This document shows positions 3,369-41,120 of a stretch of 64,000 nt of DNA, one piece after another. The position numbers and the translations under genes are program-made. The DNA comes from Bacteroidales bacterium (lineage in GTDB: Bacteria; Bacteroidota; Bacteroidia; Bacteroidales; JAAYJT01): assembly GCA_049654165.1 (NCBI GenBank), contig JBASHR010000037.1, positions 16,780 to 80,779 of the forward strand, in the 5' to 3' direction. The notes below the pieces were generated by a model. It made no database searches. It was given only the letters and a program-made list of their open reading frames with translations, and was not told where the DNA came from. Positions within the stretch are counted from its first letter, which is position 1. Each line of letters starts with the position of its first letter.

Positions 3369-5219
3369 TTGATAATTATGGTATTACAGACAATTGACTG
3401 GATTTTTGTTGCGCTGTTTTTTCTTGTTTTACTCACAATAGGATTATTGGCAGCACGTGATGCAGGTAAAAATACTGCCAGTTTTTTCCTTTCAGGACGT
3501 AATATGCCATGGTGGCTGCTAGGTGTTTCCATGGTAGCCACTACCTTCTCGGCTGACACGCCTAATTTGGTTACTGATATGGTGCGAACCGGCGGAGTAG
3601 CGGCAAACTGGCTGTGGTGGGCTTTTTTGCTTACAGGTATGCTCACTGTATTTGTTTATGCCAAACTCTGGAATCGTTCAAGAGTAATGACTGACCTCGA
3701 GTTTTATGAGTTGCGTTACAGTGGAAAAATGGCTGCTTTCCTCCGTGGGTTCAGAGCAATTTACTTAGGTTTCTTTTTCAATGTCATGGTTATTGCAAGT
3801 GTTTCTCTTGCATTCATTAAAATAGCCGGCGTTATGCTTGGCCTGCAGCCTGCACCGGCACTTATCATAGCTGCTGTTGTGGTTGTGATATATAGTGGCC
3901 TGGGAGGTCTGAAGTCAATTTTATGGACTGATTTGTTTCAGTTTAGCTTTGCAATGGCCGGTGCTATCATAGCCGCCGTTTTTGTAGCTCGTTCACCACA
4001 GGTAGGCGGATTGACAGCCTTGTTTTCAAATCCTGCTGTTGCCGGTAAACTCAGATTAATACCAGAAATATCAAATCCGGAACTGTTCTTAAGCATATTT
4101 CTGATCCCTATAGCTGTTCAGTGGTGGGCAGCATGGTATCCGGGAGCCGAACCCGGTGGTGGCGGATATATTGCCCAGCGTATGCTGTCAGCAAAGAATG
4201 AAAGTCATGCTGTAGGAGCTACCTTGCTTTTCAATTTCTTTCATTATGCCTTACGCCCCTGGCCCTGGATTATTGTTGGTTTGGGTTCGCTCATTGTTTT
4301 CCCCGATATCCAGTCAATGGTAACTGCTTTTCCTGATGTAGCCGAGCAGTATATTAAAAATGACTTTGCTTATCCTGCCATGCTACGCGAGTTTCTCCCT
4401 GCAGGAATACTTGGGCTGGTAGTAGCTTCGCTGATAGCAGCATTTATGTCAACGGTGGCATCGCAGTTAAACTGGGGCTCTTCATATCTGGTCAACGATT
4501 TTTACAGCAGGTTTTATAATCCCAAAGCCACTGAAAAACAAAAGGTTGCATTTGGCAGAATAAGCACAATCACATTAATGGTTTTTTCTGTGCTGCTGGC
4601 ATTGGTTTTACAAAACGCCCTTCAGGCTTTTCAGTATTTATTGATGATTGGTGCGGGTACAGGCCTTATTTACATTCTCAGATGGTTCTGGTGGCGTGTA
4701 AATTCATATTCTGAACTGTCAGCAATGATAGCTGCCGGATTTTTCTCGCTTGTTTTCATTCTTATTGAGAATTTTGCCATGGTTCAGTTACCTGATGAAA
4801 AGGTTGAAGTACTCGGGATTCTGACTACTGCCAAATACTGGGGAATGATCAAATTTGTGGGAGTAGTTATTTTAACCAGTGTTTCATGGTTGCTGGTTAC
4901 TTTTCTTACCCGTCCTGAAAACGATGAAACATTAAGAAGCTTTTACCGTAAGATCAGACCCGGAGGCCCTGGCTGGGAAGCTGTTGTTACGAAAGCACGA
5001 TCAGAAGGAGTTGAGTTAATTAAGGATAAAGACCTTCGCTGGGACGTTCCTACAGGGATTGTTTGTATGATACTTGGCTGCATTATGATTTACAGCACAT
5101 TGTTTGCAATTGGAAATTTCCTGTATTCAAACAATACTCTTGCATTCATTCTTGTTGGATTAGCTGTCGTTTCAGGATTCTTGCTGACAAGGTTCTGGAA
5201 AAAACTGAGAATGGCATAA
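3369..5219 (+). CDS. sodium:solute symporter family transporter
   Basis: 616 aa and highly hydrophobic with multiple TM segments. SSF-like N-terminus (FFLSGRNMPWWLLGVSMVATTFSADTP) and GGGYIAQRMLSAK. Confidence 0.85.
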   Translation: MIIMVLQTIDWIFVALFFLVLLTIGLLAARDAGKNTASFFLSGRNMPWWLLGVSMVATTFSADTPNLVTDMVRTGGVAANWLWWAFLLTGMLTVFVYAKLWNRSRVMTDLEFYELRYSGKMAAFLRGFRAIYLGFFFNVMVIASVSLAFIKIAGVMLGLQPAPALIIAAVVVVIYSGLGGLKSILWTDLFQFSFAMAGAIIAAVFVARSPQVGGLTALFSNPAVAGKLRLIPEISNPELFLSIFLIPIAVQWWAAWYPGAEPGGGGYIAQRMLSAKNESHAVGATLLFNFFHYALRPWPWIIVGLGSLIVFPDIQSMVTAFPDVAEQYIKNDFAYPAMLREFLPAGILGLVVASLIAAFMSTVASQLNWGSSYLVNDFYSRFYNPKATEKQKVAFGRISTITLMVFSVLLALVLQNALQAFQYLLMIGAGTGLIYILRWFWWRVNSYSELSAMIAAGFFSLVFILIENFAMVQLPDEKVEVLGILTTAKYWGMIKFVGVVILTSVSWLLVTFLTRPENDETLRSFYRKIRPGGPGWEAVVTKARSEGVELIKDKDLRWDVPTGIVCMILGCIMIYSTLFAIGNFLYSNNTLAFILVGLAVVSGFLLTRFWKKLRMA

Positions 5220-6800: not shown

Positions 6801-6877
6801 ATCAATTTGTGATTATTGAATCAATATTTTATGAAAAACCTGTTCTCAAAGTTCTTAGCTATGGTCTGATTTTTTTT
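6801..6877 (+). repeat. degenerate copy of the leader plus signal-peptide segment found at 8990-9070
   Basis: atcaatttgtgattattgaatcaatattttATGaaaaacctgttctcaaagttcttagctatggtctgatt. Compared with copy B, one A is missing after the ATG. The frame therefore shifts and reads MKNLFSKFLAMV followed by a stop. Confidence 0.75.
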
Positions 6878-8989: not shown

Positions 8990-9070
8990 ATCAATATTTT
9001 AATCATTAAATCAATTTTTTATGAAAAAACCTGTTCTCAAAATTCTCAGTTATGGTCTGATTATTTATTT
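8990..9070 (+). repeat. leader plus signal-peptide segment of the LRR gene, paralogous to 6801-6877
   Basis: atcaatattttaatcattaaatcaattttttATGaaaaaacctgttctcaaaattctcagttatggtctgatt. The region from the ATG onward is about 90 percent identical to the other copy by hand alignment. Confidence 0.75.
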
Positions 9071-12452: not shown

Positions 12453-12515
12453 GAAATTGGCTAAAGCCGGTGATACAGAATACTTATATCTGGTAGCCGG
12501 GCTTTAGCCAATTTC
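12453..12515. repeat. inverted pair of ttggctaaagcc modules forming an 18-bp stem (1-nt bulge) with a 26-nt loop; candidate bidirectional terminator between the convergent LRR gene and moxR
   Basis: The left arm gaaattggctaaagccgg (12453-12470) pairs with the right arm ccgggctttagccaatttc (12497-12515). The element starts 31 nt after the LRR gene stop. Confidence 0.65.
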
Positions 12516-12536: not shown

Positions 12537-12560
12537 AATTGCGACAGGCTTAAGCCAAAA
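12537..12560 (+). repeat. short repeat module aattgcNNcNggcttaagccaaaa, copy 2
   Basis: aattgcgacaggcttaagccaaaa is in direct orientation relative to 6501-6524. Confidence 0.7.
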
Positions 12561-31988: not shown

Positions 31989-33179
31989 TTAAAGTTTGCG
32001 GTATTCGAAAGTAATATTGAAAACATGTTTCATAATATCCTTGTCAATATCGGAAAATTCAATATTACGCCGCTTATAAACAGCTTCGGCAACCTTTATT
32101 GCTTTGTTTATATTATAGGTAGTAAAACCGGTGTAGCCTCCCCAGGCAAAGGAAGAGATGAAATTGCGCTGGAAATTTCCGCCAAAAATATTGGAACTTA
32201 CCCCAACAACAGTACCGGTATTAAACATGGTGTTTATCCCCGATTTTGAATGGTCACCCATAATCAGACCACAAAACTGCAAGCCGGTGTCAATAAAAGA
32301 TTGTTCGGGGTAATTCCACAAACGAACATTCTCGTATGTGTTTTTCAGGTTCGAAGTATTGGTGTCGGCACCCAGATTGCACCATTCGCCCAATACCGAA
32401 TTGCCAAGATAACCATCATGGGCTTTGTTAGAATATCCCAAAATAACTGAGTTGCTCACTTCGCCGCCAACTTTTGAATGCGGTCCTACGGTTGTGCCTC
32501 CATAGATTTTCGCACCCATCTTAACCATTGAGTGCTCACATAAAGCAAAGCTACCCCTTATCATACTACCTTCCATGACTTCAGCCTTATTGCCAATGTA
32601 CACAGGACCATCGCTGGCATTCAGGACTACGCCATAACCTATCCTTGCATCATCTTCGATAAAGATATTTTCAGGGTTCACCAGATGGGCAAACTTTGAA
32701 ACATCCTGCGATTTTCTTCCCCTGGTTATAAGAGCAAAATCATCCTTTATCGCCTGATCATTTAATGCAAAGATATCCCAGAGATTGCATAACTCGGTAA
32801 CAGGGGCTTTTGTGAGGATCTCATCAGTGTTTTCTGTACTTTTTGATCCGGTACCTTCCAGATCTTCGTAAGTTACATGCATTGCTATAACAGTATCGTT
32901 TCTTATAAGAGCCTGATTAGCTTTAAGATTGTTGATCTCGCTTATCAACTCCTTATTTGGGAAAACAGCACCATTGATAAGGATGTTATCCGATTCCTTA
33001 ACGATAGGGAATTTTCTCTCAAGGTATTTCTCGGTAAGGGAAGAGGTTTTAACCCCCAGATATTTTTCCCATTTTTCTCTTATTGTCAGAATACCGACCC
33101 TGATATCGGCAACAGGTCTGGTAAAGGTCATTGGCAGCAGGTTACCGCGCCTTGCATCATCAAAAAGTATATAATTCAT
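31989..33179 (-). CDS. GlmU-like putative sugar-phosphate nucleotidyltransferase with left-handed beta-helix repeats
   Basis: Start taken at MNYILFDDARRGNLLPMTFTRPVADIRVG (complement 33177-33179). The C-terminal half has hexapeptide-like repeats. Confidence 0.65.
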   Translation of the reverse strand: MNYILFDDARRGNLLPMTFTRPVADIRVGILTIREKWEKYLGVKTSSLTEKYLERKFPIVKESDNILINGAVFPNKELISEINNLKANQALIRNDTVIAMHVTYEDLEGTGSKSTENTDEILTKAPVTELCNLWDIFALNDQAIKDDFALITRGRKSQDVSKFAHLVNPENIFIEDDARIGYGVVLNASDGPVYIGNKAEVMEGSMIRGSFALCEHSMVKMGAKIYGGTTVGPHSKVGGEVSNSVILGYSNKAHDGYLGNSVLGEWCNLGADTNTSNLKNTYENVRLWNYPEQSFIDTGLQFCGLIMGDHSKSGINTMFNTGTVVGVSSNIFGGNFQRNFISSFAWGGYTGFTTYNINKAIKVAEAVYKRRNIEFSDIDKDIMKHVFNITFEYRKL

Positions 33180-33737: not shown

Positions 33738-33785
33738 TAAACGGGCTAAAGTCCGTTACTATTCACAATGATATAATCACAACCC
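33738..33785. repeat. solo copy of the hairpin module (aacgggctaaagtccgtt + attcacaatgatataatca) in the rpmE2/rho intergenic region
   Basis: It matches the array module gaacgggctaaagcccgtt / ccggctaaagccggtggcaattcataatcata, with one stem position changed (a G-T pair). Confidence 0.6.
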
Positions 33786-35995: not shown

Positions 35996-36095
35996 TTCGG
36001 GAATTAAAGGCATATAAACCTGTTGCACCAATAAAAACAGGCACTTGCTGTTATTTATATTTCTCTGAAACCAACAAGGTCCGGTTTCATCATAT

Positions 36096-37013
36096 ATGCT
36101 AATCAATAAAATTATGTTATCAGTATTACAGAATTTCCGAAATTCATTAAAGAAGATCCTGAGCCTGGGATTAGTGGCAGCAATCGCCGTAGCCTGTGTT
36201 CCTGTTTTTGTTAAAGAAAAACCGGTAATATCAGTAAGCATATTGCCCTATAAATATTTTGTTGAGCGTATTGCAGGAGATAATTTTGAAATCCAGGTCA
36301 TTACGCCTCCGGGAGTAAGCCCCGAAACTTACGAACCAACTCCAAAACAAATAAAGGATCTGAGCAATTCTGTTATTTTCTTTGTTAACGGTAATCTGAT
36401 ATTTGAAGATCATATTATTGACAAATCAGAGAAAAGCTCCGAAACACTCACGGTTGACCTTAGCAAAGATATTGACCTGATTGCTGGAGAAGTAGCTCAC
36501 CACGGCGACCATGTGCACCTTCACGGTATTGACCCTCACCACTGGCTATCGCCGGCAGAAGTAAGAATACAAATCAATACCATTCTGAAAACACTACTTG
36601 AATTTGACCCGGACAACAAGGAAATGTATATGGCTAATTATGAGGATTTCACAAAGGATATTGATAAACTTGATAATCATATTAAAGGGCTTATAGCTGA
36701 TTCCCCGATCAAAACATTTCTGATATATCATCCGGCTTTTGCATATTTTGCAAGAGCTTACGGACTGGAACAAATTGCATTGGAATCAGACGGCAAGGAG
36801 CCTATCGGTTCGCATATTAAAAATATAATTGATGTTGCCCGTAAGCTGGATATCCACACCATACTTGTTCAAAGTCAGTTCAATACTGTTTCGGCTGAGG
36901 TTGTGGCTGCTGAAATATCCGGAAAAATTGAGATCCTCAACCCTCTTGAAGAAGACTGGCTTGCAGGTATGTATGCCATTTCTCATACAATGCAGAAAGC
37001 TTTGAACCCATAG
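36096..37013 (+). CDS. znuA: metal (zinc-type) ABC transporter substrate-binding lipoprotein
   Basis: 305 aa. Lipobox AVAC, a His-rich loop (VAHHGDHVHLHGIDPHHW), and ZnuA/TroA-like flanks. The gene symbol is by analogy only. Confidence 0.8.
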   Translation: MLINKIMLSVLQNFRNSLKKILSLGLVAAIAVACVPVFVKEKPVISVSILPYKYFVERIAGDNFEIQVITPPGVSPETYEPTPKQIKDLSNSVIFFVNGNLIFEDHIIDKSEKSSETLTVDLSKDIDLIAGEVAHHGDHVHLHGIDPHHWLSPAEVRIQINTILKTLLEFDPDNKEMYMANYEDFTKDIDKLDNHIKGLIADSPIKTFLIYHPAFAYFARAYGLEQIALESDGKEPIGSHIKNIIDVARKLDIHTILVQSQFNTVSAEVVAAEISGKIEILNPLEEDWLAGMYAISHTMQKALNP

Positions 37014-37104
37014 AAACGATGATTTAAAAGCTGATTTTTGCATTGAGCCGGTAAAAATTACGATCAGGTCATTGTATTTTTTTTTAGAACCCGGAATAAA
37101 GAAT

Positions 37105-37112
37105 TACTTTTG
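37105..37112 (+). promoter_or_regulatory. -7 element TAnnTTTG in the znuA-znuC gap
   Basis: TACTTTTG, 25 nt upstream of ATG 37137. Confidence 0.4.
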
Positions 37113-37136
37113 CATTTAAAGAAATCTGGTAACTCT

Positions 37137-37892
37137 ATGGGCAAGATCATTGAATTGATTGACATTTCGGCTACTTATGGTGAAGAGATAGTTCTTAAAG
37201 ATGTGAATCTCACCATAAATTCAAATGACTTTGTTGGAATAATTGGTCCGAACGGAGGAGGGAAAACCACTCTGGTAAAGCTGATGGTTGGTTTGCTCAA
37301 ACCTGTTAAAGGTCAGATTATTATGCACAAGGCTAATGGCAGGGATATAAAGAACCAGATAGGATATTTACCTCAGATAAGCCGTTTCGACAAGCGATTT
37401 CCGATTTCCGTAATTGATGTTGTGCTTTCAGGGCTGGTTTCTGATAAAGCTGTTTTTAAAAGATATACCCGGACTGATAAGGATAAAGCCGTTGAACTGC
37501 TTGCCAGGATGGGAATCAGCGATCTTTACTCAAGGCCTATCGGGGAACTGTCGGGTGGGCAGATGCAGAGGGTTTTTCTCTGTCGTGCTATCATTACATC
37601 CCCTTCCCTGCTTATCCTTGATGAACCCAATACATTTGTTGACAGTAAATTTGAAGCCGAGCTTTATGATATTTTGCTGGAGCTTAACAAAACCATGGCT
37701 ATCATTGTTGTTACCCACGATATAGGTACCATTTCATATTATGTAAAAACCATAGCCTGTGTAAATAAATACCTGAATTACCATCCGTCGAACATCATCA
37801 CTGAGCAACAGCTTGCTGCCTACGGCTGCCCTATCCAGATTATTACTCACGGCGATATTCCTCATACTGTACTTAAAAAACACAATCACTGA
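37137..37892 (+). CDS. znuC: metal ABC transporter ATP-binding protein
   Basis: Start at MGKIIEL (ATG 37137), 25 nt after a TActTTTG box. Walker A GPNGGGKTT, signature LSGGQMQR, Walker B LLILDEP. Confidence 0.85.
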   Translation: MGKIIELIDISATYGEEIVLKDVNLTINSNDFVGIIGPNGGGKTTLVKLMVGLLKPVKGQIIMHKANGRDIKNQIGYLPQISRFDKRFPISVIDVVLSGLVSDKAVFKRYTRTDKDKAVELLARMGISDLYSRPIGELSGGQMQRVFLCRAIITSPSLLILDEPNTFVDSKFEAELYDILLELNKTMAIIVVTHDIGTISYYVKTIACVNKYLNYHPSNIITEQQLAAYGCPIQIITHGDIPHTVLKKHNH

Positions 37893-37893
37893 T

Positions 37894-38733
37894 ATGGCTG
37901 AACTTGTTGAACTCATCAGCTATTCTTTTTTCAGCAAAGCCCTGCTGGCTGCCTTACTGGCAAGTATTTCATGTGGTATTGCCGGAACCTATATAGTTGC
38001 ACGGCGCAAAGTGTTCATTGCAGGAGGGATAACCCATGCATCGTTTGGCGGGATTGGTATGGGTTATTTTTTTGGTATAAATCCAATGCTTGGAGGTGCT
38101 GCATTCGGGCTGCTATCGGCACTGGGCATAGAGTTCATATCAAAAAAGACTGAGATCCGCGAAGATTCTGCCATTGGAATAATCTGGTCGTTTGGGATGG
38201 CACTGGGTATCATTTTCATTTTCCTTACCCCCGGATATGCTCCCAATCTTATGACCTACCTTTTCGGGAATATTCTTACCGTAAGCGATGCCGATATTAA
38301 TTTCATGATAATCCTTTGCTCATTACTCATACTGTTCTTTATTCTGTTCTACCGCATCATTCTGTTTACCTCTTTCGATGAAGAATACGCCCAAAGCCAT
38401 AAACTACCGGTAAACACCTTCAATTACATATTGATCGCTCTTGTTGCCTTAGTTATTGTACTTAATATCAGAGTCATAGGCATTATCCTTGTGATCTCAT
38501 ATCTTACATTACCACAATCGGCTGCCAACCTGCTTACCCGAAATTTCAAACACATAATCATTTATTCCGTTATTTTCGGGGTACTGGGCAGTATAACAGG
38601 GCTTTACATTTCATATTTAGCAGATCTGCCCTCAGGAGCCATCATCATCTTTGTTTTTGTAGTTCTATACCTTGCCATTTGGCTGCTTAAATATTTCCAT
38701 CAAAAACACAGATTGCACAGGCAGTTAAAGTAA
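37894..38733 (+). CDS. znuB: metal ABC transporter permease
   Basis: Start at MAELVELISY (ATG 37894), directly after the znuC stop. ABC-3 type polytopic membrane protein. Confidence 0.85.
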   Translation: MAELVELISYSFFSKALLAALLASISCGIAGTYIVARRKVFIAGGITHASFGGIGMGYFFGINPMLGGAAFGLLSALGIEFISKKTEIREDSAIGIIWSFGMALGIIFIFLTPGYAPNLMTYLFGNILTVSDADINFMIILCSLLILFFILFYRIILFTSFDEEYAQSHKLPVNTFNYILIALVALVIVLNIRVIGIILVISYLTLPQSAANLLTRNFKHIIIYSVIFGVLGSITGLYISYLADLPSGAIIIFVFVVLYLAIWLLKYFHQKHRLHRQLK

Positions 38734-38766
38734 ACTGTTGAATTTCGGTCTTATCAGTTCTTTTTT
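38733..38766 (+). terminator. weak hairpin plus T-run after znuB
   Basis: aactg (38733-38737) pairs with cagtt (38755-38759), followed by cttttttc. The stem is short, so confidence is low. Confidence 0.3.
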
Positions 38767-38804
38767 CGAACACAATAAACACAACTACTTTTCTTCACTC
38801 TCTG

Positions 38805-39345
38805 AAATCCCGTAGAGCAGCAATATTCCAGCGCTTCGGGAACCTCAGCATCCGGAACTACAAATCCCGCAGGTTATTTAATCCCGTAGTGTCGCAGATA
38901 CTTACGGGATGGTATGATTATAACGCCTGTGGAACTCTAAACCACATACAAACCCTGAAGGGGTGAAATATTCCGGCGCTTCGGGAACCTCAGCGCACGG
39001 AGTTAATAGCCCTGTAAGGGCTATATTTTGGTAGAAAATCATAAAAATTCAATCTCTAAGCCCCGTAGGGGCGGCATGTCAATAACACGTGTGGTACTCT
39101 ATGCCTCTCACAAACCCTGGAGGGGTTTAATAACAAATGATCGATGAATAATGAATAGGAACGGGCTTTAGCCCGTTCATTAAATAAATTCCCTCTTCCC
39201 TCTGGGCTTTAGCCCAAATCTACTGGATGTTAAAATCTAATTACATTTTTAAACTGGTTTGGCTAAAGCCAATATTGTGTTGTTACCCCTTTTTTACCAC
39301 CGGCTAAAGCCGGTGGCAATTCATGATCATACCATTATGAATAAA
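38805..39345. repeat. mosaic array 2 of the same hairpin-module family
   Basis: It contains ggcgct-N11-agcgc (38975-38996), atcccgtagtgtc/gatacttacgggat (38881-38910), ccccgtagggg (39061-39071), acgggc-ttta-gcccgt (39161-39176) and ccaccggc-taaa-gccggtgg (39297-39316). By eye, 39110-39340 is homologous to 25008-25230 at roughly 80 percent identity. Confidence 0.85.
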
Positions 39346-39414
39346 ATGCCCGGGCTTTAATATTGTCCTCCTCTATATTACCCTAATAATAATTCATTCA
39401 GCATAAACTTTTTG

Positions 39415-39422
39415 TATTTTTG
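39415..39422 (+). promoter_or_regulatory. -7 element TAnnTTTG overlapping the first possible (TTG) start of the TPR/LuxR ORF
   Basis: TATTTTTG at 39415-39422, while the ORF track opens at 39420. Confidence 0.4.
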
Positions 39423-39440
39423 CTGAAATCAGAAACGCTA

Positions 39441-41120
39441 TTGTTGAAAAGAATTTCAAATAAAACATTCATTATTATTTCAATTCTGATTTGGGTTTGT
39501 TCGCACACAGCAGCAAACAATCAAAGCAGGCTGGATTCGCTGTATCATCTGCTCGAAACCACCAGGCACGACACTTCAAAAGTCAACATACTTGTTGAAA
39601 TATCAAGGATACACGAAAAAAGTGATCTGTCACTTTCATTGCAATACTCGCAGCAAGCCCTTGAAATTGCTGAAAAAACAGGGAACAAGGGATCGGTTGC
39701 CTATGCTTTGTTCAACCTGGGTAATGTTTCGTTTGCGCAAGGACTATTCCCTATTGCAGTGAACTATTTTGAGAAATATATCGAGCTGCAGCATGGGATT
39801 GAAAATGCAATCCCTATTGCGTTCGCACAGATAAATCTTGGAGCTATAAATATAAAGCTCAATCAATTTGAGCAGGCAGAAAAATATTTTCTCGGCGCTC
39901 TTGAATCCTTCCGTCAGGCTGAATCAGCAGACCCTTCAAAATCGTTCGACAAAGAGTCAATAAATATTTATAATAATCTCGGAATTATCTATCAGCGCGA
40001 AAAAGATGTAAACAAAGCCATTGAATACTATAACAAAGGGATAGAACTTGCTGAAAAGACTTCGGAAGAGAGCGGGATACATGCAATGCTGTTTAATAAT
40101 CTGAGTTCGGTGTTGCTGGATATGAATAAAACGGAAGAAGCTCTGGTTCCTATGGAAAAAGCTCTGGAAATAAGGCTGAAAAACAACGACCGCGCCGGCG
40201 AAGCTTCATCGTATAAAATGATAGCCCGTTATCATTCCATTCTTAACAATAAACAGAAAACCAGGGAATATCTGAACAAAGCATTTTCAATTGCTGAGGA
40301 AACGGGCAACAATTCGCTTAAAGCCGAAATCTGCAATGATATCTTCAACTATTATCAGCTTAATAATCAAAGCGATTCAGCTTTGAAGTATCATATTCTT
40401 CTGAAGGAATTAAATGATATCATGAACAAGGATGAGGCTCTGAAAGAACTTACCCGCATAGAGCTTACCGCTCAGTTTGAACAGCAGGACCTGATAAGGC
40501 AGGCTGAACAGAAGCGCAAGGAGCTTAAATATCTGATTATAGGTCTTGTATTGTTCCTCAGTGTGGTAATTCTGACCCTTCTGTATTTCTTGCTCTGGAG
40601 TCGTATGAAAAGGCTGAGGCTGGAAAAAGAAAACGTACAACTGGTTTCAAAAAATCTTGAACTCGAAAAGACCACCCTTGGGCAGGAACTGGAAATACGG
40701 AATAAAGAGCTGACTACCAATGTAATGCATCAGATCCAAAGAAATGAACTTGTGAATGAGGTTGTGCAAAAGCTTCAGGATTTTGGTAAAACACTGCGCA
40801 AGGAAGACCAGCATCTTATCCTTGGTTTTGTGTCGGGCTTAAAAAAATCGCAGAACACTGCCGTATGGAATGAGTTTGAGGTAAGGTTTCAGCAGGTTCA
40901 TAATGAATATTACGATAAACTCAACCTTATAAATCCCGATCTTACGCCAAACGACCGCAGGCTTTGTGCTTTTTTACGTCTTAATATGAACACCAAGGAA
41001 ATTGCATCAATTACCGGACAATCAATCAGAAGTATTGAAGTTGCCCGTACCCGCCTGAGGCGCAAACTTAATCTCACAAATTCCGATACCGGACTTGTTG
41101 AATTCTTGTCGCAATTGTGA
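39441..41120 (+). CDS. TPR-repeat protein with a transmembrane segment and a C-terminal LuxR-type HTH domain
   Basis: The ORF is open from 39420 but has no ATG until deep inside. Probable TTG starts are at 39441 or 39444. TPR-like repeats are followed by a TM helix (LIIGLVLFLSVVILTLLYFLLW), a coiled coil, and the C-terminal LTPNDRRLCAFLRLNMNTKEIASITGQSIRSIEVARTRLRRKL. Confidence 0.7.
   Translation: MLKRISNKTFIIISILIWVCSHTAANNQSRLDSLYHLLETTRHDTSKVNILVEISRIHEKSDLSLSLQYSQQALEIAEKTGNKGSVAYALFNLGNVSFAQGLFPIAVNYFEKYIELQHGIENAIPIAFAQINLGAINIKLNQFEQAEKYFLGALESFRQAESADPSKSFDKESINIYNNLGIIYQREKDVNKAIEYYNKGIELAEKTSEESGIHAMLFNNLSSVLLDMNKTEEALVPMEKALEIRLKNNDRAGEASSYKMIARYHSILNNKQKTREYLNKAFSIAEETGNNSLKAEICNDIFNYYQLNNQSDSALKYHILLKELNDIMNKDEALKELTRIELTAQFEQQDLIRQAEQKRKELKYLIIGLVLFLSVVILTLLYFLLWSRMKRLRLEKENVQLVSKNLELEKTTLGQELEIRNKELTTNVMHQIQRNELVNEVVQKLQDFGKTLRKEDQHLILGFVSGLKKSQNTAVWNEFEVRFQQVHNEYYDKLNLINPDLTPNDRRLCAFLRLNMNTKEIASITGQSIRSIEVARTRLRRKLNLTNSDTGLVEFLSQL

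Follow-up and report, generated by a model that had tools for sequence, protein, structure and literature searches.

The DNA analysed here (henceforth the window) is a stretch of 64,000 nucleotides (nt) from an uncultured Bacteroidales bacterium (contig JBASHR010000037.1), and the element in question is a string of small hairpin modules in the intergenic gap between znuB, at the end of a znuACB operon (36096–38733), and a downstream gene for a TPR/LuxR regulator. The znuB stop at 38733 is followed by 686 nt (38734–39419) if the regulator is taken to begin at the mechanically called TTG at 39420, and by 710 nt with the NCBI start at 39444, which is implied by the 558-residue NCBI protein (P0001). 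The modules occupy 38805–39392 (array 2), and hairpin modules common to both, in identical orientation, make up a second string at 24535–25564 (array 1). The features of array 2 and of its right-hand border are:

38805–38818, plus strand: part of a B-type module (aaatcccgtagagc) and the first module that can be recognised past the znuB stop
38822–38855, plus strand: first copy of module A (aatattccagcgCTTCGGGAACCTCAGcatccgg), a degenerate hairpin (repeat family and blastn-short)
38880–38910, plus strand: module B, aatcccgtagtgtc-gca-gatacttacgggat, a hairpin of 12–13 bp whose triloop is GCA; it folds as DNA at -7.8 kcal/mol (z -4.0)
38950–38964, plus strand: C/E-type hairpin aaaccctgaaggggt; the array homology of the related loci L122 and L123 ends leftward at about 38947–38960
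38967–39000, plus strand: second copy of module A, in which 38967–38996 is identical at 30 of 30 positions to 25278–25307
39006–39024, plus strand: module X, hairpin atagccct-gta-agggctat (hairpin listing, DNA fold)
39025–39057, plus strand: AT-rich tail (attttggtagaaaatcataaaaattcaatctct), related to the tail after the C and B hairpins of array 1
39060–39072, plus strand: module D, hairpin gcccc-gta-ggggc (blastn-short, hairpin listing)
39112–39128, plus strand: module E, hairpin aaaccc-tggag-gggttt; a B-type hairpin stands at the equivalent position in the ortholog L122
39144–39346, plus strand: composite unit of four hairpins, about 185–200 nt, which is the block common with array 1
39159–39178, 39203–39216, 39259–39272 and 39297–39316: hairpins F, G1, G2 and H of the composite unit
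39319–39342, plus strand: AT hairpin ATTCAT..ATGAAT of the composite unit
39347–39392, plus strand: what remains of the linker from H to A, with a truncated start of module A (gggctttAATATT, 39352–39364); right edge of the array
39393–39443, plus strand: region of the TPR/LuxR core promoter, which relatives conserve whether or not they carry the array; likely start codon at 39444

Each module joins a GC-rich hairpin to an AT-rich tail, and the arrays are strings of such modules, along which the GC fraction oscillates between about 0.1 and 0.7 (a GC wave). Stems measure 4–13 bp, and the loops are either GAA, GTA or GCA closed by a C-G pair or tetraloops of the form T(A/T)(A/T)A, including TAAA and TTTA. 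The folding energy of individual modules as DNA is -3 to -13 kcal/mol, and array 2 as a whole folds better than shuffled sequence on both strands (z = -5.8 on plus, -4.2 on minus). As for coding potential, just tiny, non-conserved open reading frames (ORFs) cross the arrays. The corresponding features elsewhere in the window are:

24535–25564, plus strand: array 1, about 2.6 copies of a super-unit of 431–443 nt (A-B-C-tail-D/E-...-H-linker)
25034–25234, plus strand: full composite unit of array 1
24743–24761 and 25511–25529: F/H hybrid hairpins of array 1, deletion products that stand beside one full unit
24836–24869 and 25278–25310: further copies of module A in array 1
23960–24534, plus strand: window-specific DNA at the left edge of array 1, the DsrE gene (24057–24419) with its flanks
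12455–12515, no strand assigned: solitary inverted pair of GGCTAAAGCC-type hairpins, about 60 nt, between convergent genes, resembling a REPIN (a hairpin-forming doublet of repetitive extragenic palindromic sequences, REPs)
33740–33757, plus strand: solitary F-like hairpin aacgggctaaagtccgtt

The conserved tail after the C hairpins of array 1 (gaTATGTTTGtagaaaat) contains a perfect Bacteroidetes -7 box in two copies, 24975–24982 and 25406–25413, both facing rightwards into the D/E hairpin. Beside the inverted pair at 12455–12515, likewise between the two convergent genes, lies an extra ggcttaagcc hairpin (12540–12560).

Repeat finding and blastn-short against the window tie every module family of the znuB–TPR/LuxR gap to 24420–25564, all in plus/plus orientation and largely collinear (38805–39346 being tied to 24529–25564 alone), so that two gaps 14 kb apart hold the same modules in the same order and orientation; outside both arrays the 64 kb contain just the two solitary short-module matches listed above. 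Tandem Repeats Finder (TRF) detected no tandem period in the arrays of the window, the copies being too diverged. The core of the resemblance is a block in which 39144–39342 aligns with 25034–25230 at 78.5% identity over 205 aligned nt (E=2e-38), its full extents being 39144–39346 and 25034–25234. Just upstream, past an indel of 7–10 nt, 39112–39133 matches 25009–25030 at 95%. The initial annotation had described a shared block of roughly 80 percent identity, and both this figure and its coordinates were correct within a few bases. Given that the collinear AT-rich spacers align as well as the GC stems, the similarity is not limited to the stems, and a resemblance far beyond chance is confirmed.

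Orthologues of the TPR/LuxR protein form a graded series, and we compared the regions upstream of the gene in seven loci from other genomes (L119–L125; the prefix L denotes collected loci throughout). Downstream synteny (TPR, GcpE, DAGK, Wzy, MatE) is kept in all of them, and it is the upstream side that varies:

L119, L120, L121 and L124 (88–93% protein identity): a long ORF upstream; array 2 absent, homology to the window starting at 39393
L119 and L124, within this set: cas9, then cas1 and cas2, upstream of the TPR/LuxR gene
L120 and L121, within this set: a truncated, unannotated ORF (938 and 223 residues) upstream of the TPR/LuxR gene
L122 and L123 (92%): a Big_2 protein and small ORFs upstream; array 2 present from about 38947 to the gene
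L125 (69%, outgroup): a Peptidase_C14 gene about 860 nt upstream; no module matches

The cas genes form a type II-C cas9-cas1-cas2 locus (L119 888–5874, L124 794–5769) at the position orthologous to window ~36000–39392, that is, to znuACB plus array 2. Since the homology of L122 and L123 starts at ~38947, its left limit falls inside array 2. Within the part that they do share, two hairpins have been exchanged between conserved flanks, the window having E or C type (AAACCCTGRAGGGGT) where L122 has B-type. Between the window and L122 the composite unit is 90% identical and the 97 nt next to the promoter 92%, as against 70–78% at third-codon positions of the flanking genes, and the differences are spread evenly over hairpins and spacers.

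At the right edge, homology with the relatives that have no array begins at 39393, 22 nt upstream of a TAttTTTG (39415–39422) that matches the Bacteroidetes -7 consensus, TAnnTTTG. This box is kept in all four aligned sequences (window, L122, L119 and L124), and the ~20 nt upstream of it are likewise conserved, array or not. The array thus abuts the promoter of the regulator, as had been proposed, and array 2 supplies everything upstream of about position -30 of this predicted promoter, whose transcription start is expected 6–8 nt past 39422.

On the left side, the nearest relatives lack a close orthologue of znuACB (77% is the best non-self match of ZnuB), and in the outgroup metagenome-assembled genome (MAG) GCA_964419945 the operon lies elsewhere, by Exo_endo_phos and a Fer4_5-type gene, with a 54-nt gap after it. 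From these two facts we infer that znuB and the regulator were brought together in the lineage of the window and that array 2 lies where they meet. In a similar locus, L209, FtsK follows Exo_endo_phos and the Fer4_5-type gene. We also considered whether the left part of array 2 arrived with the znu operon and rejected this, because the nearest znuB homologues (75–76%) have downstream gaps of 54–58 nt, too short to hold an array; those gaps were not searched for modules.

The site of array 1 gave a comparable picture. In relatives whose RfbC is 96–97% identical, the gap between czcD and rfbC measures 411, 437, 621 or 652 nt, and in the window it reaches 1617 nt, made up of DsrE and 1145 nt of array; the outgroup has a 64-nt gap with no array. 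When these gaps are aligned, the indels fall exactly at module boundaries. L128 has an extra 26-nt TCCCGAATGACTCGGGA unit and L132 an extra unit of ~149 nt consisting of A, B and tail. Some relatives carry the full F-G1-G2-H unit and others a G1/H hybrid, from which ~82 nt between the two cores are missing. The G1/H hybrid of L126 and the F/H hybrids of array 1 show where sequence between two GGCTAAAGCC cores was deleted. The F hairpin in the full unit of array 1 has a TAAA loop, which makes its core a direct repeat of the H core, the substrate expected for the deletion that yields an F/H hybrid. BLAST against three close relatives (L126, L129 and L132) found no counterpart of the 575 nt with DsrE (23960–24534), which end exactly at the first A module of array 1; no DsrE gene was called at the czcD–rfbC site in any close relative. 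Strain-specific DNA therefore lies at the left edge of both arrays, DsrE at array 1 and znuACB at array 2. Both sites are polymorphic among related genomes, so that the arrays are not invariant sequence.

The closest genomes to the window are MAGs from anaerobic digesters (LSQX01, JAAYJT01, CAZJZG01). Short-read contigs of the same strain (L001, L003) end at both arrays, as dispersed repeats cause assemblies to do. In related MAGs the modules recur as a set at further loci (L101, an array of 1.3 kb with divergent genes on its two sides; L008, L037, L060 and L085), and a metagenome scan with the H hairpin returned 74 loci (L135–L208), 14 of them from low-GC relatives. From these 14 and the loci collected earlier we aligned 30 distinct copies of the full 185-nt unit. 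It is found singly and head-to-tail: L160 and L183 have 4–5 exact H-hairpin matches at ~185-nt spacing (4 in L160), and in L183 the unit forms a satellite of 7.1 copies at 92% identity. The earlier proposal of a composite unit, as opposed to a local tandem duplication, is borne out by these non-orthologous sites, where the unit also occurs as tandem satellites. Copies at different loci are 67–80% identical and tandem copies in L101 98%, the orthologous pair of window and L122 lying at 90%; dispersal is thus old, with local amplification ongoing. Array L101 also contains tandem 20-nt repeats TTTCGACAAGCTCAATAACA (4196–4250 and 4886–4970), whose core TTCGACAAGCTCA resembles the loop of module A and also hairpins that yield spurious 'FDKLRANG'-type ORFs in many phyla.

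Comparison of the 30 copies shows spacers that diverge around hairpin cores of almost constant sequence. Covariation is negligible, with 92% of cells paired, two-sided change in 3 of 960 cells and an RNAalifold covariation term of -0.17 kcal/mol. The usual loops are TTTA in F and G1 and TAAA in G2 and H, and G1 is able to pair with H over 10 bp, which makes the unit a loose large palindrome, bounded just by a 6–8 nt inverted end ATGAAT..ATTCAT. In independent copies the loops have flipped between TAAA and TTTA (F in array 1, H in two L160 copies). In quasi-palindrome mutagenesis, template switching within a palindrome flips the loop to its reverse complement; TAAA and TTTA being mutual reverse complements, the flips are the expected product of such switching. 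Three of the sampled arrays lie between convergent genes and three between divergent ones (L101 and L149 among the latter), the rest being tandem or undetermined, and no consistent relation was seen among them between the orientation of the array and that of its flanking genes.

These comparisons establish that the arrays grow, shrink and are reshuffled as DNA. Tandem gain and loss affects whole modules; deletion between 10-nt hairpin cores leaves hybrid hairpins behind; single hairpins are swapped between conserved flanks and loops flip between TAAA and TTTA; and the edges or interiors of arrays coincide with breakpoints in gene content between close relatives. The most likely explanation, in our view, is a lineage-wide mosaic of non-coding hairpin repeats of the REP or MITE (miniature transposable element with inverted repeats) kind, organised like the bacterial and the neisserial mosaic elements (bacterial interspersed mosaic elements, BIMEs, and Neisseria intergenic mosaic elements, NIMEs) and evolving by slippage and by unequal and ectopic recombination. 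The mechanisms would be slippage during replication or unequal crossing-over, ectopic recombination or gene conversion from one dispersed array to another, and template switching within palindromes. For the modules to spread to their many intergenic sites in the first place, an enzyme acting in trans and recognising the hairpins was probably required, by analogy with the pairs REP/RAYT (REP-associated tyrosine transposase) and dRS3/NIME.

Several observations weigh against this explanation. At the loci compared we saw no clean pair of filled and empty insertion sites, no target-site duplication and no long terminal inverted repeat, and a crude HUH...Y regular expression found no Y1/HUH-like ORF in the window or in the loci collected by then. 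The near-invariance of the hairpin cores in the 30 copies fits a sequence-specific function as well as it fits homogenisation, and 19 of these copies have a minus-strand TAnnTTTG box beside G1 (39222–39229 in the window). Finally, the 90% identity of the L122 ortholog points to constraint, gene conversion or recent exchange and not to pure neutrality, three causes that a single pair of genomes does not tell apart. The searches for a partner gave little: no candidate mobilising enzyme or linked transposase was found in the window or the loci collected by then, clustering of the ORFs within 1.5 kb of module-A hairpins at 114 loci revealed no recurrent protein family, and there were no matches to plasmids, phages or viral contigs. 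Rfam 15 had no gathering-threshold match in the window; at permissive E-values the arrays and the foreign loci described below returned generic sub-threshold hairpin matches, among them positions 14–33 of psRNA14, which equal the H hairpin. A full-text literature search by module sequences and by psRNA14 found nothing relevant. A possible link of such hairpins to small GIY-YIG nuclease genes was dropped, there being no GIY-YIG-like ORF in the window or in 118 collected loci. Readings of the module-A loop as a 16S rRNA mimic, as a GAGA loop of the sarcin-ricin type or as a hammerhead or other small ribozyme were discarded on inspection, as the core positions misfit.

In behaviour the arrays are closest to the neisserial NIMEs, with the BIMEs and clustered REPs of E. 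coli also close (PMC1797815, PMC3733652, PMC6006769). NIMEs are intergenic arrays in which GC-rich inverted repeats (dRS3) flank AT-richer RS units, producing a GC wave, and according to the paper that describes them they had not been seen outside Neisseria (PMC1797815). Like them, the Bacteroidales arrays mix several repeat families, display a GC wave, differ in unit number and length between strains at syntenic sites, and sit at recombination endpoints beside variable genes. Unlike them, they have at least eight hairpin types instead of one and lack dRS3 (ATTCCC-N8-GGGAAT), whose single match in the 64 kb (at 32993, with one mismatch) is outside the arrays and at chance level. We know of no phage recombinase that targets the Bacteroidales modules, nor, to our knowledge, has natural transformation been described for this uncultured host. 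With REPs, BIMEs and REPINs they share numerous short (20–40 nt) imperfect extragenic palindromes that stand alone or gather with other motifs into mosaics, and the inverted doublet at 12455–12515 is also of this type. REP clusters can be reiterated in tandem together with flanking DNA, and a GTAG or CGTC at the hairpin foot is the criterion for a REP (PMC3733652). Here only module B has GTAG at a 5' foot, that of its inner hairpin; module D carries the tetranucleotide within its loop, there is none in modules A, C, E, F, G and H, and no module contains CGTC. Further differences are the much shorter stems (4–8 bp for most modules), the many unrelated hairpin types within one array, and the failure of the crude search mentioned above to find, in the window or the loci collected by then, a RAYT gene, which in REP systems is a cognate Y1 HUH gene in single copy with the repeats on its flanks. 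The pneumococcal BOX elements (boxA-boxB(n)-boxC) and the Correia elements of Neisseria are modular, intergenic, non-coding and often adjacent to promoters. The Bacteroidales arrays share with these the composite unit of 100–200 nt made of a variable number of sub-modules, the intergenic position, often by promoters, and the lack of coding capacity; unlike BOX, Correia or MITE sequences, the 185-nt unit has just its 6–8 nt inverted end and no target-site duplication, and its head-to-tail amplification into satellites is not typical of BOX and Correia elements. Judged by sequence, the arrays appear to fall outside the NIME, BIME and REP families and would represent an undescribed family of a known kind of element.

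Among other ways to account for the arrays, the one nearest to ours makes transposition the main source of the mosaic, the modules or the 185-nt unit being non-autonomous mobile elements (REP/REPIN- or MITE-like) that a hairpin-specific enzyme cuts and pastes, such as a RAYT-type Y1 HUH transposase or a dRS3-type recombinase. Copies at many non-orthologous intergenic sites and hairpins exchanged between conserved flanks speak for it, and C-G-closed GNA triloops, a hyperstable type of single-stranded DNA hairpin, are present as GAA, GTA and GCA. The GTAG that module B has at the 5' foot of its inner hairpin, with a strand bias of 13 GTAG to 3 CTAC over both arrays, points the same way, as does a GC-rich genome in which a bona fide MITE of 245 nt, with terminal inverted repeats of 19 nt, contains the H hairpin. 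Moreover, the TnpA-Y1 of Bacteroidetes include two subclasses linked to atypical structures, 2.4 and 2.6 (PMC6006769). Yet most hairpins lack the GTAG or CGTC foot, the crude pattern search brought up no Y1-like ORF, and the copies are old (paralogues 67–80% identical against 90% for the ortholog). There is also no target-site duplication and no precise pair of insertion and excision, homology between neighbouring modules being sufficient to explain every indel examined. We regard transposition as the main source as possible and rather doubtful. The initial annotation had called the unit mobile or recombining; recombination stands, given the indels at module boundaries, the hybrid hairpins at deletion junctions and the homology breakpoints inside or at the edges of arrays, and transposition has found no such support, with no target-site duplication, clean filled and empty pair or transposase in evidence. 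An unlikely proposal sees in the arrays genes for small RNAs or a structured RNA acting in cis, such as a ~60-nt RNA of the minus strand running from the TAnnTTTG beside G1 to the F hairpin, or a leader or upstream RNA of the TPR/LuxR gene. Strong folding on both strands and an ortholog more conserved than synonymous sites would suit it; the -7-like box that 19 of 30 copies carry on the minus strand, with F and a U-rich tail behind it, and the perfect TATGTTTG in the C-module tail of array 1 are leads for this reading, not evidence. It fits poorly with the rest: there is no Rfam family, the stems are invariant rather than compensated, with covariation essentially absent, the differences between window and L122 fall evenly across hairpins and spacers, and TAnnTTTG is about twofold enriched in the arrays (4 found, 2.1 expected). 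Nor do the arrays have a fixed orientation relative to neighbouring genes, and module number varies freely between near-identical strains.

We give a low probability as well to working terminators, insulators or mRNA-stabilising 3' structures kept between operons. Array 2 does follow znuB, array 1 and the solitary pair at 12455–12515 lie between convergent genes, and in Crocinitomicaceae the module-A core sits at the apex of hairpins with a flanking A-tract and T-tract. A scan of 38000–40000 found 4 terminator-like sites where shuffling predicts 1.8; three of the four are in array 2, two of these on the plus strand (X and G2), the only ones that face away from znuB. Against such a role, the T-run is missing after most hairpins, L101 and L149 lie between divergent genes, a single terminator would suffice in place of 10–13 hairpins, and relatives do without an array at the same gene. 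As to chance or low-complexity similarity, a degenerate CRISPR array or an integron attC array, the repeats are hairpin-rich and some relatives have a CRISPR-Cas9 locus at the equivalent position; all three are nevertheless refuted, the first by the E-value of 2e-38 for the shared block, the second by the lack of a regular repeat-spacer period in TRF and by modules heterogeneous in sequence and length, and the third by the count of RYYYAAC/GTTRRRY core-site pairs, which is zero in both arrays on both strands.

Two of the hairpin cores have counterparts far outside this lineage. A genome scan with the module-A core GGCGCTTCGAGAGCCTCAGCGACC returned at least 114 stretches (L005–L118), and among the matches listed the core is multi-copy in Microbacteriaceae, Crocinitomicaceae and another Bacteroidales MAG (the genomes being those of Bacteroidales MAG OY781463, Fluviicola, Crocinitomix, Gulosibacter, Leifsonia and Lacisediminihabitans), with isolated matches in Treponema and Neomarinimicrobiota. 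The 19-nt module-A pattern continues with exactly CGACC in 43 of the 125 listed matches. These foreign cores occur as inverted pairs, in tandem arrays or at the apex of terminator-like hairpins, the last being the arrangement in Crocinitomicaceae, where a 24-mer of the core is flanked by an A-tract and a T-tract. The H hairpin with its 3' CAA (CCACCGGCTAAAGCCGGTGGCAA, window 39297–39319) was found in 60 GC-rich (54–68%) metagenome loci, most of which have a GGCT(G/A)AAGCC hairpin ~24 nt upstream of it; in metagenome Ga0316208 it lies within the 245-nt MITE, whose 19-nt terminal inverted repeat is GGCAACGCCGTTAAcGATT. Among the loci listed, only those of this Bacteroidales lineage have both hairpin families together, and no protein, Rfam family, plasmid or phage linked to the foreign cores was found. 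The two cores match repeats of unrelated phyla base for base. They might be cross-phylum hairpin elements, spread horizontally or held by a conserved machinery that binds single-stranded DNA or RNA, several of which have accumulated in the Bacteroidales arrays, a suggestion that we make tentatively and think unlikely.

Mosaic arrays of this kind are well characterised only in enterobacteria (BIMEs) and Neisseria (NIMEs), and a part in promoting recombination and the exchange of genes at loci nearby is ascribed to those of Neisseria. The behaviour shared by the arrays of digester Bacteroidales (syntenic arrays of variable content, gene-content breakpoints at their edges, amplification as satellites) suggests that this organisation of genome plasticity is more widespread than described. 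In practical terms, the arrays break short-read assemblies of these MAGs and offer markers for strain typing. By replacing the region upstream of the core promoter, array 2 may also alter the control of the TPR/LuxR regulator between strains. Unrelated to the arrays, the window contains a 42-nt direct repeat (6834–6875 and 9025–9066, 90% identical) that begins with ATGAAAAA and lies ~55–100 nt upstream of two ORFs; its second copy encodes a signal-peptide-like ORF of 29 residues, which is frame-shifted in the first.

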